In this document: one piece after another, positions 1,994 through 45,908 of the stretch
How the letters are laid out: each line of letters opens with the position of its first letter
Position numbering within the stretch: the stretch's first letter is position 1
Origin: Dehalococcoidia bacterium
GTDB lineage: Bacteria; Chloroflexota; Dehalococcoidia; Lucifugimonadales; UBA3495
Reading direction: 5' to 3'
Length of the DNA: 64,000 nt
Assembly (NCBI GenBank): GCA_965215425.1
Contig: OZ244064.1
Coordinates: forward strand, 2,362,319-2,426,318
Made by a program: the position numbers and the translations under genes
Notes under the pieces: model-generated
What the model was told of the DNA's origin: nothing
Database searches by the model: none
Seen by the model: the letters and a program-made list of their open reading frames with translations, nothing else

Positions 1994-2075
1994 GCCACAT
2001 CCTTAATAATAGAAATGGACTCAGTAGACTCGGAACGCAACCCAATTAACTCGGCGGATGCTTCGGCAAACCGGA

Positions 2076-2903
2076 CTACCTTTCTTTAGCCAGGTTGGTT
2101 ACCAGGTTATAGGAAAACCAGCCGTCTCCGGTGATAAATATCTGGGGCCGGGCGTTGGCGGCGTCCCGGACGAGGCTGAACCCGTCGGAGGTAGCGTCAA
2201 AAGAAACGATCCTGGAATAGGGAACGCGGAAACTCTTTTCCGTTCCCTTGAAATAAACATGCTTGTCGGTAATGCCCACCGTGCCGGTATCAACGCGTTC
2301 CGTTACATTATGCTCGATGCTTTCGCTCCGGAAGGACCGGGGCGAGTAATAAACTCCCCGCATAACCCGAACGCCGACGCCGGAGGACGAGCCTTGCCGT
2401 ATCCGTCGGGTGCGTCTTTCGTAGTAGCCAACGTTGAAAAAGGTCCAGACCGGCTTTTCCGACTTCTGAAAATTGAAGGGCGGGTTATCGGTCCGGTGCG
2501 GATCATCGGGCAATTTGCCTTCGCACACCTCCCGCAAAACCGCGCCCCGGGTCAGCCGGTCTAAAGCCAGGGTGCCGACGCCCCGTTCCAGGTGGAAACG
2601 GCGGGCATAATCCCGCAAACTTTCCTCCTCTTCCCGGGTCAGCAGACCATCCTCAAGGGACATAGCCACGGCCCGTTTCAACCCCTCGAACATGGTGGCC
2701 CGGACCATCGCCGGCGGCACAAAGTTGGCGCTGGCGATCTGGAACAATTCCTGCGGCAGGTTGTCGGACGTATTCCTTCCCGTCGCCGCCGCAATGGTCC
2801 GTGCGACCATCGCCCGCCGGCCCGAATTGTATCGTTTGGCGCACTCTGAATGAGCGCCCCGCAGAAAGCCGGCCGTTTCCCCGCAATGCCTGCAATCGCC
2901 CAT
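2076..2903 (-). CDS. hypothetical protein with an N-terminal Cys-rich (CxxC...C) segment and a possible PH/GRAM-like C-terminal half
   Basis: 275-aa ORF with coding-like composition (MGDCRHCGETAGFLRGAHSEC...). I recognise no specific family. Confidence 0.55.
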   Translation of the reverse strand: MGDCRHCGETAGFLRGAHSECAKRYNSGRRAMVARTIAAATGRNTSDNLPQELFQIASANFVPPAMVRATMFEGLKRAVAMSLEDGLLTREEEESLRDYARRFHLERGVGTLALDRLTRGAVLREVCEGKLPDDPHRTDNPPFNFQKSEKPVWTFFNVGYYERRTRRIRQGSSSGVGVRVMRGVYYSPRSFRSESIEHNVTERVDTGTVGITDKHVYFKGTEKSFRVPYSRIVSFDATSDGFSLVRDAANARPQIFITGDGWFSYNLVTNLAKER

Positions 2904-3000
2904 GGCTCAGCTCCTGATTCAGTCGTCTATGGGTAGTCCGGGCAGCAATGCAGCCACCGGTAATTATAGAATTGCCGGGAGGTTTATTGCAATTGCGGCC

Positions 3001-3010
3001 GGCGCCGCGG
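3001..3010. repeat. left copy of the 10-bp target-site duplication GGCGCCGCGG flanking the IS
   Basis: An identical 10-mer occurs at 3001-3010 and 4207-4216, directly abutting the two inverted repeats. Confidence 0.8.
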
Positions 3011-4206
3011 CAGGGTCTTTCTATTCTCAAGGGCAGGCCAGTCCGAGGAGGCGGAGGGCCTGTCCGGGCAGCCAGCCGGTCTGCCGCAGCGCCGCGGCGA
3101 CGTTCTTGACGCCATTCAACCGCAGCAGGCACAGCGTTGCGTTGCGCAGCACCGCCATCACTTCCGGCGCCGCCCCCTTGCGCACCTGGCTGGCGTCCTC
3201 ACCCAAGGTTACGTCCCGGACGTAGTGCAGGCGATTTTCAATCTCCCAATGCCCCCGCACATAGCGCCGCTGCGCCGCTGGCCCCATCTCCCGGCCCAGG
3301 CTGGTGACGGCGTAGCGTGTCTCCGTGGTGGTCTGTCCCTTTTGCTCCACTCGCCGCCGCACTTCGCAGACTGGCCGCACCCCCGGCCAGTCCAGACATT
3401 CCTTCAGGTATTCGTTCAGGGCCTCCGTGGTCCGCAGTTGCCGCCTTTCAAGGCGGTCCCCATGCCGTCCCTGCTGCCGGGCCTTCCGGTACTTCGCGCC
3501 CCAGACCGGCCGGGCAAAGGCCAAGGCAATGGCCTCATACAGTTCCGGTTGGTTCTTCTTCACAATGACCAGGTAGTCTCCCCCGGCCTCCAGCGCCTGT
3601 TGGCAGTAGTCCCGCTGACAATACAAGGCGTCCCCGGTAATCAGATTACCGGCCACCGGCAGCAGTTCCGCCGTCAGTTGCCGGGCCGTTGTCAGTTCCC
3701 CCTGTCCTGTCCTGACCCCCCTTTTGCCCCACCGTCAGGCCGGAACCGTGGGCATGGCCGGCCACCAGGCGCATCCCGGGCAGTTCCTCCCCGTGAATCC
3801 CGCGCAATGCCTTGCCATCCACCGCAATGGCAACCCGCCCCCCAGCATCCCGGGCCAGATATTGCCGGCTCCATCGGGCCACCGCCTGTTCAAAGGCGGC
3901 CACGTCCAGCCCGCGAAACACCCGGTGCAGGCACGATACCGCCGGCGTTTTGGGATGGGTGAATCCCAGGGCGGCCACCGTGGCCCCATCCTGACAGCGC
4001 CCCCACTGGTGAATGGCGTAGAGGCTGCGGGCTCCCGAGAGCATGGCGCATACGGCCAGGGTGAGAATGGCCGGCAAGGGGTGGCGGCGTCCGCTGCGGG
4101 CTCGAAAATCCGGCACGGCGGCAAAAGCCGCTTGCAAACTTCGACCTGCTTCCAGCGTATCCATACCCCGGATTATATTCATCCCCCAGAGAATAGAAAG
4201 ACCCTG
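3011..4206 (-). mobile_element. ISAs1-family insertion sequence (1196 bp)
   Basis: Perfect 18-bp terminal inverted repeats: CAGGGTCTTTCTATTCTC at 3011-3028 and its reverse complement at 4189-4206. The element is flanked by a 10-bp direct repeat and encloses an ISAs1-type transposase. Confidence 0.85.
3027..4182 (-). pseudogene. ISAs1-family DDE transposase split into two overlapping frames
   Basis: ORF 3646..4287 carries the N-terminal domain (FAAVPDFRARSGRRHPLPAILTLAVCAMLSGARSLYAIHQWG). ORF 3027..3656 carries the C-terminal domain (ITGDALYCQ...RGHWEIENRLHYVRDVTLGEDAS). The C-terminal frame is open from 3733, so the frames overlap across an A4G6 run (plus-strand C6T4 at 3715-3724). The start must lie inside the IS, probably the ATG at 4180-4182. 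Confidence 0.8.
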
Positions 4207-4216
4207 GGCGCCGCGG
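4207..4216. repeat. right copy of the 10-bp target-site duplication GGCGCCGCGG
   Basis: See 3001-3010. Confidence 0.8.
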
Positions 4217-4303
4217 CCCCCGCCTTTGGCTATACCGCCTGGCTGGGTTATTGGGTTATAATGGGGCGGCGCCAGAGCCGGGCGCATTGCCGGGAGGGGA
4301 GCA

Positions 4304-5440
4304 ATGAGCGCTATTTACCTGGACTATAATGCCACTACGCCGATTGACCCGGAGGTGGCCGAGGCGATGCTGCCTTATGTCCATGCCTATTTTGGCAACC
4401 CCTCCAGCGGCCACTCCTTTGGCTTGGCGGCCCGGCAAGGGGTTGACCGGGCGCGCCGGCAAGTAGCCGGGCTGCTGGGCTGCGCCGAGGCGGACCTGAT
4501 CTTTACCAGCGGCGGCACCGAGGCCAACAACCATGCCATCAAGGGAGTCGCCGCCGCTTATCGCGACCGGGGCAACCACATCATCACCTCTACGGTGGAG
4601 CACCCGGCGGTAACCGAAGTTTGCCGCTACCTGGAAGGGCGGGGCTGCCGGATTACCTGGCTGCCGGTGGACCAGTACGGGCTGGTGGAGCCGCTCCAGG
4701 TAGAGCGGGTCATCACCCCTCAAACTCTGCTGGTTACCATAATGCACGCCAACAACGAAGTTGGCTCCGTCGAGCCCATCGCCGAAATCGCCGAAATCGC
4801 CCACCGTTACGGTGCCCTGATGCATACCGACGCCGCCCAATCGGTCGGCAAAATACCAGTTCGGGTGGACGAGTTAGGCGTGGACTTGCTGTCCATTGCC
4901 GGCCACAAGCTCTATGCTCCCAAGGGCATCGGCGCCCTTTACATCCGCCCCGGCGTCCGATTGGAAAAGCTGATGCACGGGGCCAACCACGAGATGAACC
5001 GCCGGGCCGGCACCGAGAACGTCATTGAGCTGGTGGGGCTGGGCGCTGCCTGCGAACTGATTGAACGGAACCTGTCCGGCTATGTCCGCCAGATGCGGGA
5101 AATGCGCGACCGGTTGGAGTCGGGTTTGCTGGACTCCGGGATGGACTTACGGGTGAACGGCCACCGGAAAAAGCGGCTGCCCAACACCTCCAGCGTCAGT
5201 TTCAAGGGTCTGGAGGCCGACCGTATCCTGGGTGGACTGGAGCTGGTAGCCGCCTCTGCGGGGGCCGCTTGCCACAGCGACCGGGTAGAGGTGTCTCCCG
5301 TACTGGCGGCGATGAACGTTCCGTTGGAATACGCCATGGGAACCCTGCGGTTTTCCACCGGCCGGCACACTGCCACTGCGGAAATAGACCAGGCCCTGGC
5401 GGAGATAAGAAAGGTTGTCCGCCAACTGGCGAAACCCTGA
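4304..5440 (+). CDS. cysteine desulfurase (NifS/IscS class, PLP-dependent)
   Basis: MSAIYLDYNATTPIDPEV...FTSGGTEANNHAIKG...SIAGHKLYAPKGIGALYIR (PLP-lysine motif). RBS GGAGGGGAG lies upstream of the ATG. Confidence 0.9.
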   Translation: MSAIYLDYNATTPIDPEVAEAMLPYVHAYFGNPSSGHSFGLAARQGVDRARRQVAGLLGCAEADLIFTSGGTEANNHAIKGVAAAYRDRGNHIITSTVEHPAVTEVCRYLEGRGCRITWLPVDQYGLVEPLQVERVITPQTLLVTIMHANNEVGSVEPIAEIAEIAHRYGALMHTDAAQSVGKIPVRVDELGVDLLSIAGHKLYAPKGIGALYIRPGVRLEKLMHGANHEMNRRAGTENVIELVGLGAACELIERNLSGYVRQMREMRDRLESGLLDSGMDLRVNGHRKKRLPNTSSVSFKGLEADRILGGLELVAASAGAACHSDRVEVSPVLAAMNVPLEYAMGTLRFSTGRHTATAEIDQALAEIRKVVRQLAKP

Positions 5441-5548
5441 CCCGGAGCGCAAAAACCTCGGCGCCTCGGTGCTTCGGTGTATCGATACACCGCTGCGTCT
5501 CCCGGTGAAAAACCCTCGCCCATAAAAAAACCTGTAGGAGAGGAAAAT

Positions 5549-6907
5549 ATGACCACACTGCCCAACCCGGGCGCTTTGGACCCGGAAGCCCTGGCCGGTT
5601 TCCGAGCAGATTTTGAGTCCCAACCGGCCTACCGCCTGATGCAGAACGTAGTTACCCAGCACGATGTGAACGACGTGGCCCTGAATCGGAGCATCGTTAC
5701 CGAGGCCACCCATTCCTTTTCCACCGCTCTGGATGACTGGAGCGTAACCAACCAGGCCCGTTCCGGTCGTTGTTGGATGTTCGCCGGCCTCAACCTGTTC
5801 CGAGCGGAAACCCGTAACCTGCTGAACGTCAAGGAGTTTGAGTTCAGCCAGAACTACGTGATGTTCTGGGACAAGATGGAGCGGGCTAACTACATTCTGG
5901 AAGCGGTGATGGAGACTGCCGACCGGCCGGTGGACGACCGCGTGGTAGCGTGGCTGCTGCACCAACCCCTGGGCGATGGCGGCCAGTGGGATATGTTCAT
6001 CAGCTTGGTCCGCAAGCACGGCGTTGTTCCCAAGACGGTGATGCCCGAAACGGAAAGCTCCGGCAATTCGGCCCGGATGAACGCCAGCCTGAATTACCAG
6101 GTGCGCCAGGGCGCGCGTAACATCCGTCGCCAGTACGCTGCGGAGTCTGGCCTGGAGGCGATGCGGCGAGCCAAGCAAGAAACCCTGCAAGCGGTGTACC
6201 GGATTCTCTGCATCCACCTGGGCAACCCGCCGGACAGCTTTGATTGGCAGTGGAAGGACAAGGACGGAGACTTTCACCGGGATGGGACAATGACGCCGCT
6301 GGAGTTCGCCGAGAAGTATATCGCCACGCCTATGGAGGAGTATGTCTGCCTGGTTCACGACCCCCGGCCGGACAACCCCCCGGGCCGCACCTATACCGTC
6401 CAGTACCTGGGCAACGTGGTGGACGGGACGCGCATCAAGTACCTCAACGTGGATATCGAGCTGATGAAGGACGTTACCATGCGGATGCTGCTGGACGGTC
6501 AGCCGGTCTGGATGGGCTGCGACACCGGCAAGCAGATGCATCGGGACCAGGGCTTGTGGGACGCCGACTTGTTCGACTACGCCGGCGTCTATGGCGCCGG
6601 ATTTGACCTGGACAAGGCGGAACGGTTGGAGTACCGTCAGACGGCGATGACCCACGCCATGCTCTTTACCGGCGTGGACGTGGTGGACGGCCAACCCCGG
6701 CGCTGGCGGGTGGAAAACAGTTGGAATGACAAGGTGGGCGACAAGGGCTTTTTCCTGATGAACGACTCCTGGTTCGCCGAGTATATGTTCGAAATAGCCG
6801 CCCCCAAAAGCTATCTACCCGAGGAGTTACAGGCGGCCCTGGACCTGGAACCGGTAGCGCTGCCGCCGTGGGATCCGATGGGGAGTTTGGCGGGTAGCAG
6901 GAGTTAG
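5549..6907 (+). CDS. pepC: aminopeptidase C / bleomycin-hydrolase-type cysteine peptidase (C1B)
   Basis: NQARSGRCWMFAGLN active-site Cys motif. Start chosen at ATG 5549 (MTTLPNPG), preceded by GGAGAGG. Confidence 0.8.
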   Translation: MTTLPNPGALDPEALAGFRADFESQPAYRLMQNVVTQHDVNDVALNRSIVTEATHSFSTALDDWSVTNQARSGRCWMFAGLNLFRAETRNLLNVKEFEFSQNYVMFWDKMERANYILEAVMETADRPVDDRVVAWLLHQPLGDGGQWDMFISLVRKHGVVPKTVMPETESSGNSARMNASLNYQVRQGARNIRRQYAAESGLEAMRRAKQETLQAVYRILCIHLGNPPDSFDWQWKDKDGDFHRDGTMTPLEFAEKYIATPMEEYVCLVHDPRPDNPPGRTYTVQYLGNVVDGTRIKYLNVDIELMKDVTMRMLLDGQPVWMGCDTGKQMHRDQGLWDADLFDYAGVYGAGFDLDKAERLEYRQTAMTHAMLFTGVDVVDGQPRRWRVENSWNDKVGDKGFFLMNDSWFAEYMFEIAAPKSYLPEELQAALDLEPVALPPWDPMGSLAGSRS

Positions 6908-14746: not shown

Positions 14747-15373
14747 TCAGCTAACCTGGTAAACCCAGACCTGGTGCAGGACTTCCGGTTCTCCCTTGGG
14801 CAGCGGCTGATAAGGTTCGGTAACCTCCACCAGCTTCCACTGCCCCGCCGATTCCAGGGCCTCCTGCTTCTCTTTGAAGCCGTTCTCCTGGTAGGTATCG
14901 GTCCGCAGGCTGAAGACTATGTGCCCCCCGGGTTTGGTGACCCGTACCAACTCATCGATGGAGCCGGCCGGGGCATGGCCCTGGGTGAAGACGCCGACGA
15001 TCACCGTAGCGTCGAACTGGTCGGTGTCGTAGTCCAGTCGCTCTCCCATAACCATCTGGTCGAAGGCTTGATAGACGTTCTTCTTGCGGGCCACCTCCAG
15101 CATCCCTTGAGACAAATCCATCGCCGTCATATTCCGGTAACCCAGGTCGTGCAGGCACTGTCCCACCAGTCCGGTGCCGGCGCCGGCGTCCAGGATGCTG
15201 GCCTCTTGGGGCACGTGCCTGGCAAAGACGTCTGAAGTGCGCTGGGGCGAAATCCAGCCGAAGTCGACGTCCAAGTCGGCGTCGTATTCCTCGGCCCACT
15301 GGTCGTAGCGCTCCTCCAATTCCTGCTCGTTTTGAGAGGAATATACCCACTGCACGCGGTTTTGCTCAGTCAT
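14747..15373 (-). CDS. class I SAM-dependent methyltransferase (small, ~208 aa)
   Basis: SAM motif I ILDAGAGTGLVG, followed by MDLSQGML and VTKPGGHIVFS. Confidence 0.8.
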   Translation of the reverse strand: MTEQNRVQWVYSSQNEQELEERYDQWAEEYDADLDVDFGWISPQRTSDVFARHVPQEASILDAGAGTGLVGQCLHDLGYRNMTAMDLSQGMLEVARKKNVYQAFDQMVMGERLDYDTDQFDATVIVGVFTQGHAPAGSIDELVRVTKPGGHIVFSLRTDTYQENGFKEKQEALESAGQWKLVEVTEPYQPLPKGEPEVLHQVWVYQVS

Positions 15374-15457
15374 AGTTAACCCCTGACTCCGGCGAATAGT
15401 TACCGGTGAATGTTTTACCGGCCGGATACCGGCGACCCGTTTCAGGCTTGCTTTCCG

Positions 15458-16276
15458 CTACTTCCGGCAAACGAACAGCGCCCAGCCGACCTCTTTACGG
15501 TCAACGGAGAGCGCGGTTTCCCGGTAAGCCTCGGCCAGATAGGCGAACCGCTCCTGGTGTTCCGCATTGCCCCGGGCGGCGGCGGCGCTCAGCATCTCAT
15601 AACTGGTCTTGAGGTGGGAGGAAATATCTTCCGCTTCAAGAACCTGGAACCCGGTCGCTTTCAGGGCCTCTTGGTAAGACGCAAAGCTGAAGTCGGTGTC
15701 GTAAAGCAGGCGCTCGTAAACGAACTTTTGGGCCTTCTCGCCGATCTTCGGCTGAGGCTTGGTCAGATCGTCAAAGACGAAAATCCCGCCGGGTTCCAGC
15801 ACCCGGTAAACCTCTTGGAGTACCTTTACCTTGTCCGGCACGTGATAGATAGTGGCCTGGCTCCAGGCGTGGGTAAAGGTTTCCGTCGCGAAGGGCAAAT
15901 CGGTGGCCGAGCCTTTCTCGAAGGCCACTTTTTCCCGGATCTCGGCCGGCTGTTCTTCCAGGGAGTCAATGGCGTTGGCAATTCGCACGCCGCTCAAGTC
16001 CACCCCGGTAACGTGGCAGCCGATGGCCTGGCAGAGGGCAACGGCGGTGGTGCCGCTGCCGCAGCCCACGTCCAGCACTCGGGAAGCGGCGTTCAGTTTA
16101 CCCCGGCGGCGCATCACGGTGTTCAGGTTGGCGCCGGCCTCCAGAAAGGTCATATTAGCCCCGTCCTCGAACAAACCCCAATGAACACTGCCGTCCTTGT
16201 CCCAAAGGGCGCGGTAAACCGCATCCTCGTGGTCGTAGTATTCTTCGGTTTGGGCTTCGCTAAACTTTAACGGCAT
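15458..16276 (-). CDS. SAM-dependent N-methyltransferase of the sarcosine/dimethylglycine N-methyltransferase (SDMT) type
   Basis: Collinear with my recollection of cyanobacterial SDMT: EEYYD...VHWGLF, VLDVGCGSGTTA, DLPFATETFTHAWSQATIYH, VLEPGGIFVFDD, and a terminal GWALFVCRK. Its ATG lies inside the panD 3' end (17-nt overlap). Confidence 0.7.
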   Translation of the reverse strand: MPLKFSEAQTEEYYDHEDAVYRALWDKDGSVHWGLFEDGANMTFLEAGANLNTVMRRRGKLNAASRVLDVGCGSGTTAVALCQAIGCHVTGVDLSGVRIANAIDSLEEQPAEIREKVAFEKGSATDLPFATETFTHAWSQATIYHVPDKVKVLQEVYRVLEPGGIFVFDDLTKPQPKIGEKAQKFVYERLLYDTDFSFASYQEALKATGFQVLEAEDISSHLKTSYEMLSAAAARGNAEHQERFAYLAEAYRETALSVDRKEVGWALFVCRK

Positions 16277-16628
16277 TTTCCACTCCGGACAGGTACTCGA
16301 CGAATTCGTTGCGGTGGTTGACCAGGATAGCCCGGGGTTCTACCGGCGCATCGGTAACCTCAAAAGACATAATGATTACCTTGTTCCCCGGGTCGGTCAG
16401 CTTGGCCGCCGCGCCCTGGACGGAGACGATGCCGCTGCCCCGGGCGCCGGAGATGGCGTAGGTCTCGAACCGGTTCCCGTTGTCGATATCGCAGACCAGC
16501 ACCTTTTCGTGCTCCCAAATGTCCGCCCGGTCCATCAGGTTTTGGTCGATTACGATGCTGCCGATGTAGTCCTCATCGCAGTTGGTAACCGTGGCTCGGT
16601 GAATCTTGGACCGCATGAGTATTCGCAT
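16260..16628 (-). CDS. panD: aspartate 1-decarboxylase (pyruvoyl-dependent)
   Basis: MRILMRSKIHRATVTNCDEDYIGSIVID contains the Gly-Ser self-cleavage site, and the length is typical. Confidence 0.9.
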   Translation of the reverse strand: MRILMRSKIHRATVTNCDEDYIGSIVIDQNLMDRADIWEHEKVLVCDIDNGNRFETYAISGARGSGIVSVQGAAAKLTDPGNKVIIMSFEVTDAPVEPRAILVNHRNEFVEYLSGVENAVKV

Positions 16629-17350
16629 ATACTTGCCTCCTTTGTTCGCTAGTGTTCGCTAGTTTACCTGGATTTATGGGGCTGAACGGCACCGAAACGT
16701 GCAGCACATCACGCCAGCGGTTGGGGTGAGTCGTTTCTCGTCAAAAACGAGCCTGGTTTGTCGGACGCCGGCCCCGCCGGTTTGCCGACCGGGAAGGTCG
16801 GAGAAGCGGGTAGCAGGCCAGTCCGAGAGACTCTTAATGTGGAACGTGGCAGAAGCTAAGGCTCGCAGGGGAGTTGGCGGCAGGGCAGGGAAGCAGTGTT
16901 CCCGGTATAGTTGGAGGAGTCACTATAGTAGTAACCGAGCCAGGAAATGCCACTGGAAGCTCTGTGGCGCTCCAGCTGACTAGACTCCGGTTCAACCGTC
17001 GCTTTCCGTGATAAACTTACACGCATCCTCCGTTACCTCCTTGTCGGTTAGGGTTAGGGTGCGTTAATTCAGGATGGTATCGGCATTCCGCAGGGTTGTC
17101 AAACAAATCAATGCACTGATTCCATCGCATAATGCCTGAATATGTCCGTGTTAGTTTAGCATTGAGGATAATTATTCTGTATTACGTCATTATTTCCCAA
17201 TAATATGTCTGATTACCTGTAATACATTCAGATGAGGATGGGATTTCTATGGCAGAGACGCGGAGTTGTGTAGAGAACCGCAGCGGGTGGATCCCTACGG
17301 TGTAACTCCCGGTTTAGGTCGCTGCGGTGAATAAAAAGTGAGGACGGCTT

Positions 17351-18910
17351 ATGTTTGACTTGTTAATCCAGGGCGGTCGAATCATTGACGGCACCGGGCG
17401 AACCTGGTTCCGCGGCAGCGTGGGCGTAACCGGGGATACTATTACCGTGCTGCGCGGGGATACCGTGGCGGTGCCGGCGGCCCGGGTGCTTGACATCGAC
17501 AATGCGATGCTCTGCCCCGGCTTTATCGATATGCACTCCCACTCAGACTTGATGCTGTTGTCCGAACCCAGACACGAGGCCAAGCTGCGCCAGGGGGTAA
17601 CCACCGACGCCCTGGGGATGGACGGCTTGTCCTACGCCCCCACCTCGCCGGCCCGGTTGGAGGAACTGCTCACCTACCTGGCGGCAGTCAACGGGACGCC
17701 GCCGCCGGGGGTGCGCTGGGGCAGCGTCAAGGAGTTTCTCGACCTGCTGGACGGGAGGGTGGCCTGCAATGTGGTCTATTTCGTGCCCCACGCTGCCATA
17801 CGGGTGGAAGCGATGGGCTGGGCCGACCGGTTGCCCAATGCGGCGGAGTTGGCCCGGATGCAGGAATTGGCCCGCCAGGGTATGCGGGAGGGCGCCTTTG
17901 GGTTCGCCACCGGGCTGACCTACCCGCCGGGGGCCTACAGCGATACCGGCGAGCTGGTGGCGGTCAGCGAAGCCATCCGGGATTTGGGCGGTTTCTATAT
18001 GACCCACGCCCGCTACAGCCTGGGCGACCGGCTCCTGGACCCTTTCCGGGAGGCCATCAACATCGGCCAGCGCAGCGGAGTACCAGTGCATATTTCCCAC
18101 TACCACAATCCGGTGAACGGTATGGGGGAGCGGATGACGGCCCTGGTGGACGAAGGCCGCAACGCCGGCATTGACGTAACCTACGATCAGTATCCTTACG
18201 CCGCCGCCAGCACCGTTCTACACTCGCTTTTACCCTACTGGGTGCACGCCGGCGGGCCGGCCGCCCTGTACCGGCGAATCCAGGACCGCCGCATCCGAGA
18301 CGAAATGGGGGATTCGGTGGAACCCCAATGGGGGCTGACCCTGGACCACTATATCTTTAGCCACATCGGCTCGGCTAAAAACAAGGAATGGGAGGGGCGT
18401 TCTCTGGTGGACCTGGCGCGGCACCAGGGGAAAAAGATGGTTGACGCCATCTGCGACCTGCTCCTTGAGGAAAACCTGGACGTGGCCTTTGTGGCCCGCA
18501 CCGGCAACCCGGACAACATCCGCACGATCGCCCGGCACCCGGCCCAGATGGTCGGCTCCGACGGGTTGCTGACCGGCGGCCAGCCCAACCCCCGAACTTA
18601 TGGCACCTTTCCCTATGTCCTGGGCCAATTCGTCCGGGAGGAGGGTCTGCTACGGTTGGAGGAGGCGGTGCGAAAGATGACCGCCATCCCGGCCCAGCGG
18701 CTGGGTCTCCCGGACCGGGGCATCATCCGGGACGGCATGAAGGCCGACCTGGTGGTCTTTGACCCGGAGCGGGTGGCGGCCAGGGCCACCTTTGAGCAGC
18801 CCAAGCAATACCCGGAGGGTATCGACTACGTGATAGTCAACGGCCAGGTGGTTATTGACCAGGCGGTTCACACCGGCGCCCTGCCGGGCCGGGCCTTGCG
18901 CTCCCAATAG
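17351..18910 (+). CDS. N-acyl-D-amino-acid deacylase (D-aminoacylase) family amidohydrolase
   Basis: MFDLLIQGGRIIDGTG...CPGFIDMHSHSDL...YMTHARY... and a typical length. Confidence 0.8.
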   Translation: MFDLLIQGGRIIDGTGRTWFRGSVGVTGDTITVLRGDTVAVPAARVLDIDNAMLCPGFIDMHSHSDLMLLSEPRHEAKLRQGVTTDALGMDGLSYAPTSPARLEELLTYLAAVNGTPPPGVRWGSVKEFLDLLDGRVACNVVYFVPHAAIRVEAMGWADRLPNAAELARMQELARQGMREGAFGFATGLTYPPGAYSDTGELVAVSEAIRDLGGFYMTHARYSLGDRLLDPFREAINIGQRSGVPVHISHYHNPVNGMGERMTALVDEGRNAGIDVTYDQYPYAAASTVLHSLLPYWVHAGGPAALYRRIQDRRIRDEMGDSVEPQWGLTLDHYIFSHIGSAKNKEWEGRSLVDLARHQGKKMVDAICDLLLEENLDVAFVARTGNPDNIRTIARHPAQMVGSDGLLTGGQPNPRTYGTFPYVLGQFVREEGLLRLEEAVRKMTAIPAQRLGLPDRGIIRDGMKADLVVFDPERVAARATFEQPKQYPEGIDYVIVNGQVVIDQAVHTGALPGRALRSQ

Positions 18911-19150
18911 GTTCCCAATAGGTATGGAGGCTTGGCCCACGGGAGACTGCCCCAAAACGGGTGGCTTGCGCTCCCAATAGGTTCCCAATAGGCACGGAGG
19001 CCTGGCCCACGGGAGACTGCCCCAAAAACGGGTGGCTTGCGCTCCCAATAGGTTCCCAATAGGTACGGAGGCTTGGCCCACGGGAGACTGCCCAAAACGG
19101 GTGGCTTGCGCTCCCAATAGGTTCCCAATAGGCACGGAGGCCCGGCCACC
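18895..19150. repeat. tandem repeat of ~70 bp, about 3.6 copies
   Basis: Units start at 18895, 18965, 19036 and 19105 (lengths 70, 71 and 69, then a partial unit): CTTGCGCTCCCAATAGGTTCCCAATAGG-yAyGGAGGCyTGGCCCACGGGAGACTGCCCCAAAACGGGTGG. The first unit contains the stop codon of the D-aminoacylase gene. Confidence 0.9.
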
Positions 19151-19228: not shown

Positions 19229-20002
19229 CTAACGGCCCTTCCAGACTGGGGAGCGCTTTTCAGCAAAAGCCCGGACGCCCTCCTGAGCATCCTCGGTTTG
19301 CAGCACCTCGTCCCGCTTGTTCTGGGCGAAGGCCACCCGTTCCTCCAGCCCCATTTCCGCTCCCTTGATGGAGGCTTCCTTGATGGCGGCCAGGGACAGG
19401 GGGGCGTTGGCCGTTATCTGCTGCGCCATCGCCTCGGCCCGGGGCATTACCTCTTCCGGCGCTACCACGTAGTTGACCAGCATCAACTCCAGGGCCTTCG
19501 GCGCGTCCACGAACTCGCCGGTGAACAGGAACTCGAAGGCGATGTTTCGCGGCACCACCTGGGAGAGCAGCGCCGGCCCGCTGACTGAGGAGATGCCCCG
19601 CTTGGCCTGGGGCCAGCCGAAGCGGGCTTCGGTGGAGGCGATGCGGATGTCGCTGCCCAGCGCGATACCGCAGCCCTGGGCCAGGCAGATGCCGTTGATC
19701 GCGGAGATGATGGGCTTCCAGATTTTCGACTGCTCCACGTAGAGGTCGCCGGTGCTGGGGCCTTCGTTGGCCCGGTCGTTGGCCATGGCTACCAGGTCGT
19801 GGCCGGTGGAAAAGGCCCGGCCCCGGCCGGTAACGATGGCGCAGCGCACTTCCGGGTTGTTCTTTACGTCCTGAAAAGCGTCCCACAAGAGCTGCCGCAT
19901 GGCCGGGTCAATGGCGTTCAGTTTTTCCGGGCGGTTCAGGGTGATATAGGCGATGCCGTCCTTGATTTCGTATAGCGCTTCAGGCTCAGTCTGGGCGGTC
20001 AA
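19229..20002 (-). CDS. enoyl-CoA hydratase/isomerase (crotonase) family protein
   Basis: IAYITLNRPEKLNAI...VTGRGRAFSTGHDL. TTG start with AAGGAGG 7 nt upstream. Confidence 0.85.
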   Translation of the reverse strand: MTAQTEPEALYEIKDGIAYITLNRPEKLNAIDPAMRQLLWDAFQDVKNNPEVRCAIVTGRGRAFSTGHDLVAMANDRANEGPSTGDLYVEQSKIWKPIISAINGICLAQGCGIALGSDIRIASTEARFGWPQAKRGISSVSGPALLSQVVPRNIAFEFLFTGEFVDAPKALELMLVNYVVAPEEVMPRAEAMAQQITANAPLSLAAIKEASIKGAEMGLEERVAFAQNKRDEVLQTEDAQEGVRAFAEKRSPVWKGR

Positions 20003-20014
20003 GGTGGTTCCTCC

Positions 20015-21817
20015 TTAAAGGGAAATAGGTGATTTGCAAGCTATCCGGTTGGCGTGGGGCCAAACCTGTATTGCCACTTGGCAAAGGCGCCTGGCGCGCT
20101 GCTCAATCGCTGCTTCATCCCACACTGCTGGAGCCTCTTCCAGCAGGGTTTTATTGAGAAATAGGACGGTATGGGCGTTGAGGGTCTGGCGCTTTTCGGT
20201 CCACGGCGCGTTGGAAAGAGTGGAGTTAAGGGGGGTATTCACCAGGGTCAGGTTGCCGATGGAGTGGACGATGCGGTTGCGATTGTCCACCGACCGAGGT
20301 TCAGCTGCCACGCCGGCGGGGATGGGCCAACGCCCTTGCCAACTCTGGGGCATTATGTGTTCAATGGTCAGGCCGCGAGGAACGGACTGGGTTTCCGCCT
20401 TGTTGGTTCGGAGTTCCGCTTCGATGGCTTCAAGAACCATTCTCAGGCGCCCCCGGGTTATCGAGTGGTACAGCGGTGAGTTCAAGAATACATTCTCCAC
20501 TTGCTGGTCATCTGGCCAAATCCGGTTGGAGGCCGTTTGTCCCCCAAGGAAGTCAATTACAAAGTCGCCGGCTTGCTCGAAGCTCCCCATTTGCAGCCTC
20601 GCAATTAGTTCCATGAAAAGACGGTTGGTTCCCTGAGAAGTTGATCGGCACAACATACGACGTACCGAGAAGCTTTCCAAAGCCGTCAATGCTTTGGTTA
20701 ATTGGTCCTGCGGTACACTATTGGAACGCAGCCAGAGTAGAACCGGAGTAAGGACGCCCAGGTCCAGGACCTTCCAGCGGTAATGGAAGTCAGCCATTTC
20801 GGGGTAAGAGTTTTCTTCCAGCTTGCGATAAACTCGGCTTACCTTGCGTATGTCCTGGGCAACGGCGACTATTGACTCGTTCTCTCTGCGGCTAACATAT
20901 TCCCGGAACTCGGCAAAAACCCGGTTGGTGTTGACTTCTCCCGAAGTTCTGAGAACCAGCCAGTAGTTCAGAAATGACTCGATGCGAGGGCGGGTAAGAC
21001 GTCCCTGACGAACATCCTCATTCCACCAATTATCCGTGAAATCCCACAAGCAACTGGTATCACCCGTAAACCCGGCTCTTTCCGACTCATAGAGGACCAT
21101 GTTTTTGACTAAATCGGACTGCAACAGAGGGGTGCCCCGTGCATTGAGGGTCTCAAAGATGATGTGGGGTTCGTCTGCTTCAGCCAAGTCAAGAACGACT
21201 AATTCCAGTCTCCGGGCCAGGGCTTCTTCCAGTGCGTCCGCTCGTTTTTCCCTCTCCTGAAGGCCGGCGTCCAGCCATTGCTGCACTTGCGTCTTGAAGA
21301 AATCGTGGCACTGAACAATCAATGAATCCGAAGCTTCTTCGCTTTCCAGATCGTTTCGCATTGCCTGGCGAAATGCTTCCTGGTCGCCGGTGGTGGGCCA
21401 AACCTTGAATTCGTTATCCGAGTTGTCGCCACGATATGCTTCATAATTGGATACTAACAGGGAAAGCCGTTGGGCCGCCGCTTGGGAACGGGGTTCTTCC
21501 CGTATTCCTAGCTGTTCTTGCGTCGCATCCAGGAGCAACTGGAGCGTTGTCAACCTTTGCTGTCCATCCACTACGATGCGTCGGTCGAGTCCGTCGGAAG
21601 TGACCGTGCTTTGCTCTTGAAGCACTACCGCTCCCATAAAATGTTTGGTGTTGTCCGGTGGAGCGTCAAGCAGACCTTCCGCCGTGTTCTGAACATCTTG
21701 CCAAAGAGATTCCCATTGGTCTTCTTCGTTCCAGATGTAGCGTCGCTGAAATTCGGGAATCTCGTAACGGGCCTGCTTTTGGAACAGGTTCTGCAAATTC
21801 AGTATCTCGACTTTCAT
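20015..21817 (-). CDS. GmrSD-like type IV restriction enzyme (DUF262 ParB-like NTPase plus DUF1524 HNH-like nuclease)
   Basis: N-terminal YEIPEFQRRYIW...VVDGQQRLTTLQLLL (DUF262). C-terminal TIEHIMPQSW...VHSIGNLTLVNTPLNSTLSN (DUF1524). The gene is visibly AT-richer than its neighbours. Confidence 0.8.
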   Translation of the reverse strand: MKVEILNLQNLFQKQARYEIPEFQRRYIWNEEDQWESLWQDVQNTAEGLLDAPPDNTKHFMGAVVLQEQSTVTSDGLDRRIVVDGQQRLTTLQLLLDATQEQLGIREEPRSQAAAQRLSLLVSNYEAYRGDNSDNEFKVWPTTGDQEAFRQAMRNDLESEEASDSLIVQCHDFFKTQVQQWLDAGLQEREKRADALEEALARRLELVVLDLAEADEPHIIFETLNARGTPLLQSDLVKNMVLYESERAGFTGDTSCLWDFTDNWWNEDVRQGRLTRPRIESFLNYWLVLRTSGEVNTNRVFAEFREYVSRRENESIVAVAQDIRKVSRVYRKLEENSYPEMADFHYRWKVLDLGVLTPVLLWLRSNSVPQDQLTKALTALESFSVRRMLCRSTSQGTNRLFMELIARLQMGSFEQAGDFVIDFLGGQTASNRIWPDDQQVENVFLNSPLYHSITRGRLRMVLEAIEAELRTNKAETQSVPRGLTIEHIMPQSWQGRWPIPAGVAAEPRSVDNRNRIVHSIGNLTLVNTPLNSTLSNAPWTEKRQTLNAHTVLFLNKTLLEEAPAVWDEAAIEQRARRLCQVAIQVWPHANRIACKSPISL

Positions 21818-21886
21818 CCATTATTCTCCAGTGGACGTGGCGCTGGTTCAAGCCGCGCCAGCATAGATGACGTGGCAAATATGTCT

Positions 21887-23161
21887 CTAAATAATCCGCG
21901 ACCCGGTAGGTTTGGTTCCAATAACTCCCGATTCCTCCAGTCCGTCTATTTCTCCGTCGCTCAGCCCCAGCAGTTCCCGGTATATCTGCCGGTTGTGCTG
22001 GCCCAGGGTGGGCGCCGGCCAGTGTACCCGGCCGGGAGTGGCGGACATCCGCCAGGCAAAGCCCTGATACCATTTCGGGCCGGCCTGGGGGTGGTCAACG
22101 TAGTTGAAGGCGCCCCGGTCGGCGTAGTGTTCATTCTCCAGCAAATCCGGCCCCCGCAGTACCGGGCCGGCGGGCACCCCCGCGTCCTGGAGCTGGCGGG
22201 TGATGTCCCACATATCCCGTTTTGCCGTCCATTCCCCGATGATCCGGTCCAGTTCCGACCGGCTTTCCAGGCGGGCGGCGTTAGTGGCGTAGTTGGCGCT
22301 ATGGGCCAGTTCCGGCCGGCCAATGGCTTGAGCCAGCTGCCGCCACTGCGCATCGGTGGTAACGGCGATGGTAACCCAGCGGTCGGCGCCGGCGCAGGGA
22401 TAGGCGTTATGGGGCGCGAACCAGGGGGATTGGTTGCCCAGCCGTTCCGGTTCCCGTCCGGTAATCTGGTAGGCCAGGGCCTCGCCGCCGATGAGGGATA
22501 CCGCCGATTCCTGCTGGGATACGTCCACGAACATTCCCCGGCCGGTGCGCCGGCGGTAGCGCAGGGCGGCCAGCAGCACCCCGGCGGCGTGGGAGCCGGT
22601 GATGGGGTCGCCGTGGTTGATGCCCGACTTCATCGGCCCGTCGTTGACATAACCGGTCATATGGGCCATTCCGGAAAGCTGCTCTTGACCAATGCCGTAG
22701 GCCACGTAGTTCTGCCACGGCCCGCTGTTGCCAAAGGCCGGCATGGAGGCGTAAATCAGGTCGGGGCGGAACCGGCGCAGGGTTTCGTAGGTGTAGCCCA
22801 GGCGGGCCAGGCTGCCCTGCCGGAAGTTTTCAATCAGGGCGTCGCTGATCGATACCAGCCGTTCAAAGACCCGGCGTCCTGGTTCCTCGGTCAGTTCCAG
22901 GGTGATGCCGTACTTGCTCATGTGGAGGCAGTTAAACCAGCCGTTGCGGTTCCAGGGTTCCGCTCCCGGGTCCGAGTCCGGGTAGGCGGCGATACCCGGC
23001 GCCGGGTTTACCGGCCCCCGGTGGGAGTCGTACACCCGCCGGGATTCCAGCTTGATTACCTCGGCGCCCATATCGGCCAGCAGCTTGGTGCAGTAAGGCC
23101 CGGCCCAGATGCGGGAGAGGTCAAGGATACGGAAATTCTTCAGCGGCTGTGCCTTGCTCAA
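21887..23161 (-). CDS. CaiB/BaiF family III CoA-transferase
   Basis: FRILDLSRIWAGPYCTKLLADMGAEVIKLE. TTG start directly abuts the upstream stop, with GAAGGAG upstream. Confidence 0.85.
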   Translation of the reverse strand: MSKAQPLKNFRILDLSRIWAGPYCTKLLADMGAEVIKLESRRVYDSHRGPVNPAPGIAAYPDSDPGAEPWNRNGWFNCLHMSKYGITLELTEEPGRRVFERLVSISDALIENFRQGSLARLGYTYETLRRFRPDLIYASMPAFGNSGPWQNYVAYGIGQEQLSGMAHMTGYVNDGPMKSGINHGDPITGSHAAGVLLAALRYRRRTGRGMFVDVSQQESAVSLIGGEALAYQITGREPERLGNQSPWFAPHNAYPCAGADRWVTIAVTTDAQWRQLAQAIGRPELAHSANYATNAARLESRSELDRIIGEWTAKRDMWDITRQLQDAGVPAGPVLRGPDLLENEHYADRGAFNYVDHPQAGPKWYQGFAWRMSATPGRVHWPAPTLGQHNRQIYRELLGLSDGEIDGLEESGVIGTKPTGSRII

Positions 23162-24439
23162 CTAAATGACTCCTTCGGCGTGGAGACCTTCCACTTCGGC
23201 GGCGGAATAACCCAGACCGCCCAGGATTTCCAGGCAATGCTCGGCCAGCAGGGGGGCGCGGCGGTAAACCCAGGCGTCCCAGCCGCCGGTATTCGGGCTG
23301 GCCGCCTTTGGGTCGCCGGTATCCGGGCTGCCGGTATTCGGGCTGGCAGTATTCGGGCCGCCGGTATCCGGGCGGATGGGCGGGCCGGGGTACTGGAAGG
23401 CTTCGGCCACCGGATGCTCCAGGCGGACAAAGTAGTCCCGGGCCGTCAACTGCTCCATCTCCAGGATGTCCCGCATTTCGGCGACGAAGGAAAAGCCCAG
23501 GCCATGTTCCTGTCCGGCCTTGAAAATATCCACCTTGTCGTGTTCCAGCAGCCAGGGCAGCATCAGGGCGTCCACCTCGTCGGCGTGGAGCAAGCGGCCC
23601 TGGCGGGAGGCAAAGCGAGGGTCGGCCAGTTCCCCGGTTTCCATAATTTTGGCTACTTCCGGCCAGTTCTGGTCCGGGCCGGCGATGATGCCCACGAACC
23701 CGTCCTGGCAGGGGTAGATGCCCCAGGCGGCGCGGCCGTAGCCCCGGTTGCCCACCCGGGTAAACTCCTGCCCGGAGTAGCTGTATTGCATCAGGGCATT
23801 TTCCAGCACGTTGGTGGCGTACTCGGCGATAGCCAGGTCAATATGTTGCCCCTGGCCGGTGTCCTCGGCGTAGAGCAGGGCGGTCATAGTGGCGACAAAG
23901 GCGTTCTGGCCGGCGCCCAGTTGGGCCAGGGGCGCGCCCTCCTTGAGGGGGGGCTGCTCCGGCTCCCCGGTAATGTTCATCAGACCGCCGGCGGCGTACA
24001 GGTTGATTTCAGAGGCCTTCCAGTCCCGGTAGGGGCCGGTCTGTCCGTAGTTGGAGATGGAGGTCAGCACTAGGGCCGGGTTTTCCCGCCGCAGGGTATC
24101 GTAGTCCAGCCCCAGCCTTGCCATCACGCCGGGGGCGAAGTTCTCCACCAGAATATCGGCGGAACGGGTCAGTTGCCGGATTATTTCCCGTCCCTTGTCG
24201 GATTTCAGGTCCAGCGTCAGGCTCTTTTTTGAGGTGTTCAGGTAGAGGAACCAGGCGCCGCTCTCGCCGGGATGCCGGGGATTGGCAAAGGGCGGGAAGT
24301 AGCGCAGGGGATCGCCGCTGCCGGGCCGCTCCACCTTGATTACCTCGGCCCCCAGGGTAGCCAGCAGCTTGGTGCAGTAGGGGCCGGCAAAGTAATGGGT
24401 CAGGTCAAGAACCTTGACCCCCTCCAGCAGTCCGGGCAT
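23162..24439 (-). CDS. CaiB/BaiF family III CoA-transferase carrying a C-terminal SPNTG-type repeat insertion
   Basis: MPGLLEGVKVLDLTHYFAGPYCTKLLATLGAEVIKVE. I chose ATG 24439 rather than the ORF-track start at 24562, whose extra 41 aa translate a duplicated leader. Confidence 0.8.
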   Translation of the reverse strand: MPGLLEGVKVLDLTHYFAGPYCTKLLATLGAEVIKVERPGSGDPLRYFPPFANPRHPGESGAWFLYLNTSKKSLTLDLKSDKGREIIRQLTRSADILVENFAPGVMARLGLDYDTLRRENPALVLTSISNYGQTGPYRDWKASEINLYAAGGLMNITGEPEQPPLKEGAPLAQLGAGQNAFVATMTALLYAEDTGQGQHIDLAIAEYATNVLENALMQYSYSGQEFTRVGNRGYGRAAWGIYPCQDGFVGIIAGPDQNWPEVAKIMETGELADPRFASRQGRLLHADEVDALMLPWLLEHDKVDIFKAGQEHGLGFSFVAEMRDILEMEQLTARDYFVRLEHPVAEAFQYPGPPIRPDTGGPNTASPNTGSPDTGDPKAASPNTGGWDAWVYRRAPLLAEHCLEILGGLGYSAAEVEGLHAEGVI

Positions 24440-24771
24440 TGGGTCGTCTCCTGTAGTTCCGGGAAATTGCAAGGGAGATCGCCTGTGTGTAGCCCAGGGT
24501 GCGTCGTCTCCGGTGGTTCCGGGAAACTGGCGTTGGGCCCAGGTCAAGGTGTATTGTTGCATTGGCCGGGGGGAAATGCAAGGTAGAGCGGTTCACGGCA
24601 GCGACGCCGGGGCCCGGGGTTTCGTCGAGATTGGCCTTCCCGCTGCGTTACCGGTGTCGCGGCGGCAAAAATACGCCAGTACGCCGTGGTTTGGGGCCCC
24701 CTGCCGATACCAAGGCGTCTCGCTACAGAGAATAGTATTAAGGGCGGGTAGGCTGACTCCCCTGCCGGTTA

Positions 24772-40796: not shown

Positions 40797-41762
40797 CTAG
40801 CCCTGAGTCTGCTCAATCCGCAACGCCCAGGGCTTGAGGATAGCGTACAGGGTGTCGTTTATGGGCGTGGGGACTCCCGCTTGCCGCGCCATTCGGATAG
40901 CCGTGCCGGTCAGTCCCTCCAACTCCACCGGGCGGCCTTCCAGGAAGTCCTTGCCCAGGGAGGACATTCCCGTGGCCGGGAAATTGTCCAGGGAGGTCAT
41001 GGCCCAATCCAGGGAATCTTCCATGATGGGCGCGCCCCAGGCCCGGCCCACGGCCAGTATCTCCTCGATGGCGCCCTGGATGATTGCCCGGGTTTCCGGG
41101 ATGGCGCGCATTTCTCCGAAAACCGAGTTGCTGGCCGCCCCTACCGCCGCCGACCCGGCCAGGTAGGAGAACTTCTTCCACAACATTCCGGGCATATTTT
41201 CCTCCAACTCCACCCGCCAGCCGGCTTCCTGAAAGACCGTCAACAGCCGTTGGCATCTTTGGGTGGTACCGGGGATGGTACCGGGGGTAGTACCGGAGGC
41301 GCTACCGGGTTCCAGTTCGCCAAAGGATGCCCGGCCGGGGCCGCCTTGGGTGATTACCCCCGGCTCCTTGACCCGGCCTTCCAGGTAGCAGGAGCCAATC
41401 AGCACCCGTTCTTTGCCAAAGGCGTTCGCCAACTGCTGCCCGTTGTCGATGCCGTTTTGCAGGGTCAGCACCAGGGAGTCCGGCCCCAGCATTGGCCGGG
41501 TGGCTTCGATCGCCGCCGGGTTGTGGTACATCTTGACGGTGAACAGCACCAGTTCTTGCTCCCCGGCCTCGGTGGTGTCGGCCACGGCGTTGCCGGACAC
41601 GGTAAAGGCGCCGTCATTGCTGCTCTCCACCCGCAGCCCCCGCTCCCGGATCGCCTCCAAATGGGCGCCGCGGGCCACGAAGGTAACATTATGCCCGGCC
41701 CGGGCCAGCAAGCCGCCAAAGTAGCCGCCGACGCCCCCGGTTCCCATTACCGCAATTTTCAT
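40797..41762 (-). CDS. panE: 2-dehydropantoate 2-reductase (ketopantoate reductase, ApbA/PanE family)
   Basis: MKIAVMGTGGVGGYFGGLLARAGHNVTFVARG...LFTVKMY...LQNG. Contains a GTTPGTIPGTT insertion. Confidence 0.7.
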   Translation of the reverse strand: MKIAVMGTGGVGGYFGGLLARAGHNVTFVARGAHLEAIRERGLRVESSNDGAFTVSGNAVADTTEAGEQELVLFTVKMYHNPAAIEATRPMLGPDSLVLTLQNGIDNGQQLANAFGKERVLIGSCYLEGRVKEPGVITQGGPGRASFGELEPGSASGTTPGTIPGTTQRCQRLLTVFQEAGWRVELEENMPGMLWKKFSYLAGSAAVGAASNSVFGEMRAIPETRAIIQGAIEEILAVGRAWGAPIMEDSLDWAMTSLDNFPATGMSSLGKDFLEGRPVELEGLTGTAIRMARQAGVPTPINDTLYAILKPWALRIEQTQG

Positions 41763-43406: not shown

Positions 43407-43627
43407 CAGGTCTCCATTTTTCCTCACCCCAGCCCCGCTCCCCGGCAGAGCGGCCGGGATGAGAGTCCGATGCGAGAGCGAGGCACGGTGGAAGATTCCC
43501 GCTCGATATTAGCCGCAGTTCCGTAACGGCTGCAACGGCTGCTTCAATTTGCCGCCGGCGCGAGGGTCAGCCGGGACGGAATTGACAGTGATAGCGGAGC
43601 CGATGCAATTTGCCGCCGGCGCGCAGA

Positions 43628-44350: not shown

Positions 44351-44373
44351 CAGTCCCTCATCCGTTCCAGCCC

Positions 44374-44928
44374 TCAGTCCTTCCAGTCGGCTAGGGGCAT
44401 CGCCCGCCGGTATAGCTCTTCCAGGTCCACCTCGCTGTAGCGGATCCCCACGTTTTCCAGAACGTGGGCGTCGCTGACCTCTACCGTCATCAGGGAATTG
44501 GCCTCCGCCACCTCCCGCACCTGGGCCTTGCGGATATGCCAGTTGTGAAGGTGGTTATCAATCTCAATGGCGTGGATGTTATCTTCAATGACGATGTTGG
44601 GAGAATAATAGCCGGGGTGGCAATAGATGCGGAATACTCCGCCGCCAGGCAGGAACAACTCGCTCACCTGGTATTCGTCAAAGGGACTATGCGGCGGGCG
44701 AATTTCAATCTCCCAACCGGGAATGATAATGACTTCGCCGGGGAAATGCTGCTCTACCAGGTCCCGAAGCTCGGCGCCCCATTCCCGGTTGTGGTGGTCG
44801 GTTATGGCGATGCCGTCAATACCCCGGGCCCTGATCTGTCCAATAACCTGCTCGGCAATGGAGAGCGATGGGGGTTGGAAGTTAAAGGCTTCCCAGACGT
44901 GTGTATGTAGATCTAGCTTGACTTTCAA
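44374..44928 (-). CDS. PHP-domain metal-dependent phosphoesterase
   Basis: MKVKLDLHTHVWEAF...GIAITDHHN... matches the His-rich PHP motifs. Confidence 0.6.
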   Translation of the reverse strand: MKVKLDLHTHVWEAFNFQPPSLSIAEQVIGQIRARGIDGIAITDHHNREWGAELRDLVEQHFPGEVIIIPGWEIEIRPPHSPFDEYQVSELFLPGGGVFRIYCHPGYYSPNIVIEDNIHAIEIDNHLHNWHIRKAQVREVAEANSLMTVEVSDAHVLENVGIRYSEVDLEELYRRAMPLADWKD

Positions 44929-45817: not shown

Positions 45818-45908
45818 GTACCGGTAAAGAATGGCGATTATCCTGTACGGAAAATGAACTACGGAAAATGGACGCCGGCTGGCTAAATAGTAAGTGGCGG
45901 GCAGTCTC

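Follow-up and report, generated by a model that had tools for sequence, protein, structure and literature searches.

The 64,000-nt stretch of Dehalococcoidia DNA analyzed here (contig OZ244064.1; hereafter the window, in whose numbering all positions are given) carries on its minus strand a compact operon in which a gene for a pyruvoyl-dependent aspartate 1-decarboxylase, panD (16628..16260, 122 aa), is followed by two genes whose products match the Methyltransf_11/25 profiles of class I S-adenosylmethionine (SAM)-dependent methyltransferases. The first of these, MT1 (16276..15458, 272 aa), is a predicted beta-alanine N-methyltransferase, and the second, MT2 (15373..14747, 208 aa), resembles METTL27 and is predicted to perform one or more later N-methylation steps. 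The panD gene has its own Shine-Dalgarno sequence (AAGGAGG) and overlaps MT1 by 17 nt, the panD stop codon included (minus-strand letters GGAGTGGAAAATGCCGTTAAAGTTTAG); the ATG of MT1 lies inside the panD tail, within GAAAATGCC / GGAGTGGAAAATGCC, with a GGAG Shine-Dalgarno sequence ahead of it, and 84 nt separate the MT1 stop codon from the ATG of MT2. An earlier note on this DNA had described the overlap and the second methyltransferase gene 84 nt downstream on the same strand, and both descriptions agree with the open reading frame (ORF) coordinates and the minus-strand sequence. The same note had remarked that neither panB nor panC is adjacent and that panE lies some 24 kb away, and this also holds: the PanE/ApbA gene is found at 40797..41762 (minus), about 24 kb from the operon, and no PanB or PanC domain was detected among the scanned ORFs of the window or among the conserved neighbors in the 80 loci compared below. 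No second panD was seen within the window. A fourth conserved part of the operon, which had escaped notice, lies in the 722-nt region upstream of panD. This region holds a putative sigma-70-like promoter (17102..17074, minus; TTGACA, 17 nt, TACCAT), then a leader ORF (uORF; 17026..16856, minus; 56 codons plus TAG) with a strong Shine-Dalgarno sequence, and finally an untranslated spacer of 227 nt (16855..16629, minus) reaching from the leader stop codon to panD.

The panD product can be assigned at the family level to the aspartate 1-decarboxylases, as it scores above the cutoffs of both PF02261 (131.1 bits, cutoff 25) and TIGR00223 (114.9 bits, cutoff 106) and finds its best match among solved structures in M. 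tuberculosis PanD (2c45). In E. coli PanD the catalytic set comprises Lys9, His11, Tyr22, Arg54, Thr57 and Tyr58, and self-cleavage at a Gly-Ser bond forms the pyruvoyl group. The active-site residues of the operon enzyme align with those of the E. coli and M. tuberculosis proteins, and the Gly23-Ser24 cleavage site together with K8, H10, Y21, R53, T56 and Y57 is invariant across 85 operon PanDs. Beta-alanine is the product of the only reaction known for PanD, and the same activity is predicted for this copy. A separate peculiarity of the operon enzymes concerns residue 71 (window 16416-16418, minus), which is Gln in 82 of 86 SAR202 operon copies; the corresponding residue is Asn72 in the E. 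coli and M. tuberculosis proteins, and the MT1-linked copies of a cyanobacterium and of Entotheonella keep the Asn.

A survey of one genome per species across 185,579 species (GTDB) yielded 316 loci with MT1 relatives, and gene architectures were counted in the best 80 of these 316 loci, nearly all of which come from metagenome-assembled genomes (MAGs) of Dehalococcoidia/SAR202 recovered from seawater and sponges. The arrangement panD>MT1>MT2 accounts for 70 of the 80 loci, while panD>MT2>MT1 occurs in three, panD>MT1>MT1>MT2 in two and a divergent panD beside MT1>MT2 in one; MT1>MT2 without panD and MT1 alone are each found in two. The panD gene is hence accompanied by two or more co-oriented methyltransferase genes in 75 of the 80 loci (70 standard, 5 rearranged or duplicated), with three methyltransferase genes in two loci (L056 and L063), and the 17-nt overlap between panD and MT1 is kept in 60. 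MT2 adjoins MT1 in 78 of the 80 loci. This conservation of the panD-MT1-MT2 arrangement is far beyond what chance would produce, and synteny in marine relatives, which had been named beforehand as a test of the proposed pathway, was thus strongly positive. The flanking genes vary by lineage, with an amidohydrolase and acetolactate synthase near the operon in close relatives and dnaE, a hydrolase and a transglutaminase-like gene in distant ones. Since the flanks are replaced in distant lineages, the three genes move as a module. Among the neighbors across the 80 loci, no additional gene for an enzyme or a transporter shows consistent linkage, and therefore the substrates must be common metabolites. 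The neighbors themselves (dnaE, alpha/beta hydrolase, transglutaminase-like, MGMT-like, molybdopterin-type membrane protein, amidohydrolase, enoyl-CoA hydratase and acetolactate synthase genes) were considered as functional clues and rejected as lineage-specific and apparently unrelated. One Dehalococcoidia locus departs from the standard layout by carrying a tandem core, panD-MT1-panD-MT1-MT2 (L135, CBDDBY010000005.1, ~2055-6733), where the conserved motif of the leader ORF precedes the first panD by about 1.4 kb.

The linkage between MT1 and panD spans three phyla, in which the genes are arranged differently. In a cyanobacterial MAG, a canonical cyanobacterial-type panD (41% identity) is divergently transcribed and adjoins an MT1-MT2 pair. 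Two genomes of Ca. Entotheonella, sponge-symbiont Tectomicrobia, show MT1>panD with no MT2 nearby (L090, 2884-4293; L091, 4-1324); their MT1 proteins are 55-56% identical and their panD is canonical, and these loci constitute a minimal two-gene form of the module. The two enzymes are moreover found joined in a single polypeptide. Four clusters of in-frame PanD::MT1 fusions were identified (389-394 aa, 62-84% mutually identical, 1-8 member sequences each), whose junctions differ and all of which keep the Gly-Ser site. The possibility that one of them (P0062) results from an assembly error was considered, as its junction in L081 resembles a 1-nt deletion relative to unfused relatives, and was dropped because three further fusion clusters have other junctions and several members each. 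Repeated linkage with changing geometry, together with gene fusion, provides strong evidence that the product of PanD is the substrate of MT1.

These observations lead us to consider it probable, if well short of certain, that the promoter, the leader ORF, panD, MT1 and MT2 form a self-contained regulated operon for the synthesis of N-methylated beta-alanine, with beta-alanine betaine as the probable product. In such a pathway PanD would convert L-aspartate to beta-alanine, MT1, translationally coupled or fused to PanD, would take beta-alanine directly and N-methylate it with SAM, and MT2 would complete the methylations; the resulting N,N,N-trimethyl-beta-alanine (beta-alanine betaine) would serve as a compatible solute of marine and sponge-associated SAR202 Chloroflexota. 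If a class I SAM methyltransferase acts on beta-alanine, N-methylation is the one plausible outcome, and the retention of two, in some loci three, methyltransferases fits a methylation series that ends in beta-alanine betaine. We infer an order in which MT1 precedes MT2, since it is MT1 that is coupled to panD, fused to it or found alone with it. Deep-ocean waters and sponges harbor SAR202 Chloroflexota in abundance. Judging by their record titles, the hosts of the module are marine water-column and sponge MAGs, a habitat that fits an osmolyte role. The stepwise N-methylation of beta-alanine put forward in the earlier note thus gains from the recurrent synteny and from the PanD::MT1 fusions, both of which support beta-alanine as the substrate, and loses the "SDMT-type" label that accompanied it (see below); it emerges strengthened but unproven, and we regard it as partly supported.

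The beta-alanine N-methyltransferase of the plant genus Limonium belongs to the plant O-methyltransferase family. On the corresponding model, PF00891 (Methyltransf_2), MT1 scores 21.0 bits, below the cutoff of 22.3, and MT2 gave no match in a search with the same model, so that any resemblance to the plant pathway would be convergent. We know of no report that plants use PanD. The chemistry and product predicted here are those described for the Limonium latifolium enzyme, which converts beta-alanine through its N-methyl and N,N-dimethyl derivatives to trimethyl-beta-alanine with SAM (Raman and Rathinasabapathi 2003, as described in PMC6657504 and PMC9699165); the plant employs a single trifunctional enzyme, whereas two methyltransferases would share the task in the bacterial operon. 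Natural marine communities label beta-alanine betaine via SAM-derived methyl groups, and only the plant pathway is cited in that connection (Boysen et al., PMC9321204). The literature searched contained no genes for bacterial beta-alanine betaine synthesis and no link of the compound to SAR202, Chloroflexi or sponges, in keeping with the earlier remark that such a pathway is not established as a bacterial operon.

Gene content cannot tell how many methyl transfers each enzyme performs, and the product could instead be only partly methylated (N-methyl- or N,N-dimethyl-beta-alanine), or be another beta-alanine derivative that serves as a precursor, a signal or a methyl store and not as an osmolyte. 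The Entotheonella loci, with only MT1 beside panD, would be compatible with partial methylation, and the lack of any linked osmolyte transporter or osmoregulatory gene at the loci surveyed with a role other than osmoprotection. Conversely, two methyltransferases (three in the two loci mentioned above) have been kept together across wide divergence, which fits a multi-step series, the hosts are marine, and the plant enzyme carries beta-alanine all the way to the betaine (PMC6657504). We therefore regard this alternative as unlikely, although it is the one that survives best.

The earlier description of MT1 as an SDMT-type enzyme refers to the sarcosine/dimethylglycine N-methyltransferases (SDMT) of glycine betaine synthesis. 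In a second alternative, MT1 and MT2 would methylate glycine, sarcosine and dimethylglycine to give glycine betaine, panD being a bystander. The top NCBIfam match of MT1 is indeed the SDMT model NF041675, and residues 11-239 of MT1 are collinear with positions 13-239 of its 278. The score of 99.1 bits, however, falls far short of the equivalog cutoff of 550, which makes "SDMT-type" a loose term: collinearity stands, whereas orthology does not, other methyltransferases being equally close. By sequence and fold MT1 is as near to MitM, AtmM, RebM, SpnF and the phosphoethanolamine N-methyltransferases (PMT) as to the putative SDMT of Galdieria. Its AF2 model (pLDDT 87.4) falls by Foldseek into the RebM/MitM/SDMT/PMT fold group with TM-scores of about 0.8 to all; the Galdieria SDMT structure 2o57 is a close match (TMq 0.83), but RebM, AtmM, MitM and PMT match as well. 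MT1, which has 1058 relatives in the database and is invariant at about 75 positions across its family, founds a tight family of its own within this broad fold group and is, by its profile scores and predicted fold, not an SDMT orthologue. MT2 scores 22.3 bits on NF041675 and otherwise has only generic Methyltransf_11 matches (55 bits), and its closest solved structure is human METTL27 (PDB 7qcb; 85.8 bits over residues 23-188). METTL27 adds nothing on the substrate of MT2, because it is a human protein from a different biological setting and its PDB entry offers no usable function. Profile searches did not place MT2 among the glycine/sarcosine N-methyltransferases (GSMT), and thus gave MT1 no such partner. 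In the GSMT/SDMT systems of Halorhodospira halochloris and Aphanothece halophytica an amino acid is likewise methylated stepwise with SAM by the products of two adjacent class I methyltransferase genes. Here, by contrast, the SDMT homologue is a distant one, MT2 is unrelated to GSMT, a coupled or fused aspartate decarboxylase would supply the substrate, and the predicted substrate is beta-alanine rather than glycine. To judge from these profile comparisons, then, the pair is not an orthologue of the glycine betaine pathway; a glycine betaine product would in addition leave unexplained the PanD::MT1 fusions, the 17-nt translational coupling and the linkage to panD in three phyla, and we deem it very unlikely.

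It could also be argued that PanD is simply the housekeeping enzyme of pantothenate and coenzyme A (CoA) synthesis, sharing its transcript with unrelated methyltransferases. It belongs to the same family as the pantothenate/CoA PanD of E. coli and M. tuberculosis and has the same self-processing site and a canonical set of catalytic residues, it is the only panD seen in the window, and JGI annotates the relatives of MT1 generically as UbiE-like. The operon enzyme differs from those proteins, however, in being coupled or fused to a methyltransferase, in lacking a link to panB or panC and in having Asn72 of the E. coli enzyme replaced by Gln. On the UbiE/MenG model MT1 reaches 64.6 against a cutoff of 158, the linkage survives rearrangement of gene order, and a different panD lineage has become associated with MT1 independently in the cyanobacterium. 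Taken with the fusions, this makes a purely housekeeping role for this PanD very improbable.

Upstream of these genes, the promoter was located by a consensus scan, and in an alignment of 12 sequences from close relatives its TTGACA and the TA..AT of the -10 hexamer are invariant. Around the operon only this promoter, ahead of the leader ORF, is conserved, and terminator-like matches occur at chance level. The predicted leader peptide, MRVSLSRKATVEPESSQLERHRASSGISWLGYYYSDSSNYTGNTASLPCRQLPCEP followed by the stop codon, is preceded by AAGGAGGTAACGGAGG (AAGGAGG..ATG) and reads MRVSLSRK...ASLPCRQLPCEP, ending in Pro-Cys-Glu-Pro-stop (PCEP); the ORF is presumably transcribed and translated. Of 85 panD-bearing loci, 77, among them dnaE-flanked lineages, have an ORF ending in [LVI]-P-C-E-P-stop at a distance of 146-328 nt upstream of panD, and in one locus that has no panD (L047) such an ORF lies directly upstream of MT1. 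In most loci the ORF has 32-56 codons, its N-terminal part and length vary by lineage, and many distant lineages have a form of 32-36 aa, M.YYSTRPPV...RNR.RH.LPCEP. At the four C-terminal positions of 74 unique leaders, Pro and then Cys are invariant (74/74 each) and are followed by Glu in 72 and a final Pro in 69, while the codons vary nearly always synonymously (CCC/CCT/CCA, TGC/TGT, GAG/GAA and CCT/CCA/CCC/CCG); the stop codon is TAG in 68 and TAA in 6. The near-wholly synonymous nature of these changes indicates that purifying selection acts on the peptide and not on the RNA. The exact 18-mer at the end of the leader ORF occurs 36 times in the 185,579 species genomes, 31 of them in Dehalococcoidia, where 26 are found 150-400 nt ahead of the operon, one precedes a duplicated copy by about 1.4 kb and four are truncated by the edge of the locus; the five occurrences in other phyla have no panD nearby. 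The PCEP leader ORF is absent from the Entotheonella and cyanobacterial loci.

The leader ORF has no Pfam, NCBIfam or Rfam match. A riboswitch or structured leader RNA was also considered and rejected, since an Rfam scan covering five related loci besides the leader in the window returned nothing relevant and the predicted fold of the spacer is no more stable than that of shuffled sequence (z = 0.04); the synonymous substitutions are the reason for preferring a translated leader ORF over a structured RNA. The sequence following the leader is unusual in composition. Over the 74 leaders, the 60 nt that directly follow the stop codon have a mean (C-G)/(C+G) of +0.27, compared with 0.02 +/- 0.18 in random windows and +0.035 in the rest of the spacer, and the skew exceeds 0.2 in 64% of leaders versus 14% of random windows, which is a measure of composition and not a test for Rho utilization (rut) sites. 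In the window itself these 60 nt contain 40% C and 18% G, a rut-like composition.

TnaC and SpeFL, leader peptides responsive to tryptophan and ornithine respectively, stall the terminating ribosome and thereby block Rho. The arrangement seen here resembles theirs in its short 5' ORF with a conserved C-terminal part, its long untranslated spacer and the Shine-Dalgarno sequence proper to the first structural gene, and perhaps also in the C-rich, G-poor tract that part of the lineages carry right after the stop codon; the last codon specifies Pro, as in TnaC. The PCEP leader differs in having no sequence similarity to known leaders and in ending, in all 74 cases, with TAG or TAA, which are read by release factor 1 (RF1); a ligand-dependent arrest is suggested by analogy. 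By this analogy we infer a leader-peptide attenuation of the TnaC/SpeFL type, in an apparently new element. Expression of the operon would probably be set by the leader peptide with its conserved basic C-terminus ending in Pro-Cys-Glu-Pro-stop: a ribosome stalled while terminating at the Pro-stop would cover the adjacent C-rich, putatively Rho-loading tract, and with the tract masked, premature termination of the Rho type would be avoided and transcription would enter panD, as in tnaC and speFL. The alternative that the ORF encodes a functional small protein, or the scaffold of a ribosomally synthesized and post-translationally modified peptide (RiPP) with the PCEP C-terminus as an enzyme substrate, and has no regulatory role, could appeal to purifying selection at both ends of the peptide (YSTRPPV... 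and ...R.R..H.LPCEP) and to matches of MT1 to RiPP N-methyltransferases (daptide MT, 37 bits; CypM, 29 bits), but it is highly improbable, since those matches are weak and far under their cutoffs, the chemistry of PanD requires its alpha-amino acid substrate to be free, the loci surveyed show no linked genes for proteases, radical-SAM enzymes, PEARLs or transporters, the N-terminal parts and lengths of the peptide diverge widely among lineages, and the operon is present without the ORF in Entotheonella and the cyanobacterium.

Several observations weigh against a regulated beta-alanine betaine operon as proposed here. In sequence and modeled structure MT1 seems no nearer to the known betaine-forming enzymes than to natural-product O-, C- and N-methyltransferases, and the N-methylation of beta-alanine therefore rests on context and chemistry. 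The Entotheonella loci, without a nearby MT2, imply that three methylations by two enzymes are not a fixed rule. Some relatives have MT1-MT2 without panD (L047, L087-L089) or MT1 alone (L049, L074, L093); a substitute decarboxylase was sought at the panD-less MT1'-MT2 loci (L087-L089), where the region upstream of L089 holds only an insertion sequence (IS) element and is uninformative. As for the leader, one ORF outside the set of 74 (L068) ends in TGA, the C-rich tract is absent from some lineages, such as the L007 group, and searches of NCBIfam and Pfam at E <= 10 returned only noise and no homology to known arrest peptides.

Taking both sides into account, the most fitting description of the operon is that of a variant of the SAM-dependent betaine pathways already known, joined by a leader-peptide element that appears to be new. 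A further-reaching version, which is possible but rather doubtful, would have SAR202 make beta-alanine betaine from aspartate through a PanD-methyltransferase module unrelated to the plant enzyme and switched on by a new class of metabolite- or stress-sensing nascent peptide, the PCEP leader. If this were true, a microbial source and genes could be named for a marine betaine of unknown producers, and an arrest peptide would have been added outside the Proteobacteria. Should the PCEP leader be an arrest peptide, a phylum in which genetics has hardly been developed would gain a new translation element that responds to small molecules. The conserved three-enzyme module might provide marine metabolomics and metatranscriptomics with a gene marker, whose reach would extend to 316 species-level genomes, mostly of SAR202 and sponge symbionts, plus Entotheonella and one cyanobacterium, and it constitutes a directly testable biochemical hypothesis. 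The PanD::MT1 fusions, for their part, would be a rare and clean case of a decarboxylase of primary metabolism recruited into osmolyte synthesis.

Beyond the operon, the window contains a number of other features. A full-length gene for cobalamin-dependent methionine synthase, metH (27423-30932, minus), whose product bears on methyl supply, is situated at a distance of 11 kb from the operon and is not conserved beside the module in other lineages. Two RNA elements were recognized by Rfam models. A T-box leader (RF00230, 11923-12206, plus; 99 bits, gathering score 93) immediately precedes the gene for the large subunit of acetolactate synthase, and as the mechanically called ORF start at 12126 falls inside the T-box, the real start of this gene must lie further downstream; the T-box is also present in a related locus (L001, 9809-10085, minus). 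A thiamine pyrophosphate (TPP) riboswitch (RF00059, 51420-51534, plus; 65.9 bits) precedes thiG (51599-52390) and thiE (52394-53023). A GmrSD-type restriction endonuclease gene (20015-21817, minus; PF03235 and PF07510) coincides with the lowest GC content in the window (53.6% at 20001-22000 versus about 62% elsewhere) and may have been acquired horizontally. Two adjacent ORFs with DDE transposase domains (DDE_Tnp_1 and DDE_Tnp_1_assoc; 3027-4287, minus) probably represent a split or frameshifted IS element, and a tandem repeat (18895-19147; 71 bp, 3.6 copies, 94% matches) separates an amidohydrolase gene from an enoyl-CoA hydratase gene. Finally, many family III and family I CoA-transferase paralogues and several enoyl-CoA hydratases occupy 21887-24562 (minus), 43628-46870 (minus) and 48190-51222 (plus), and an AMP-binding ligase (41814-43427) and a luciferase-like monooxygenase (58309-59358) are also encoded; such expansions of paralogues match those described for SAR202.

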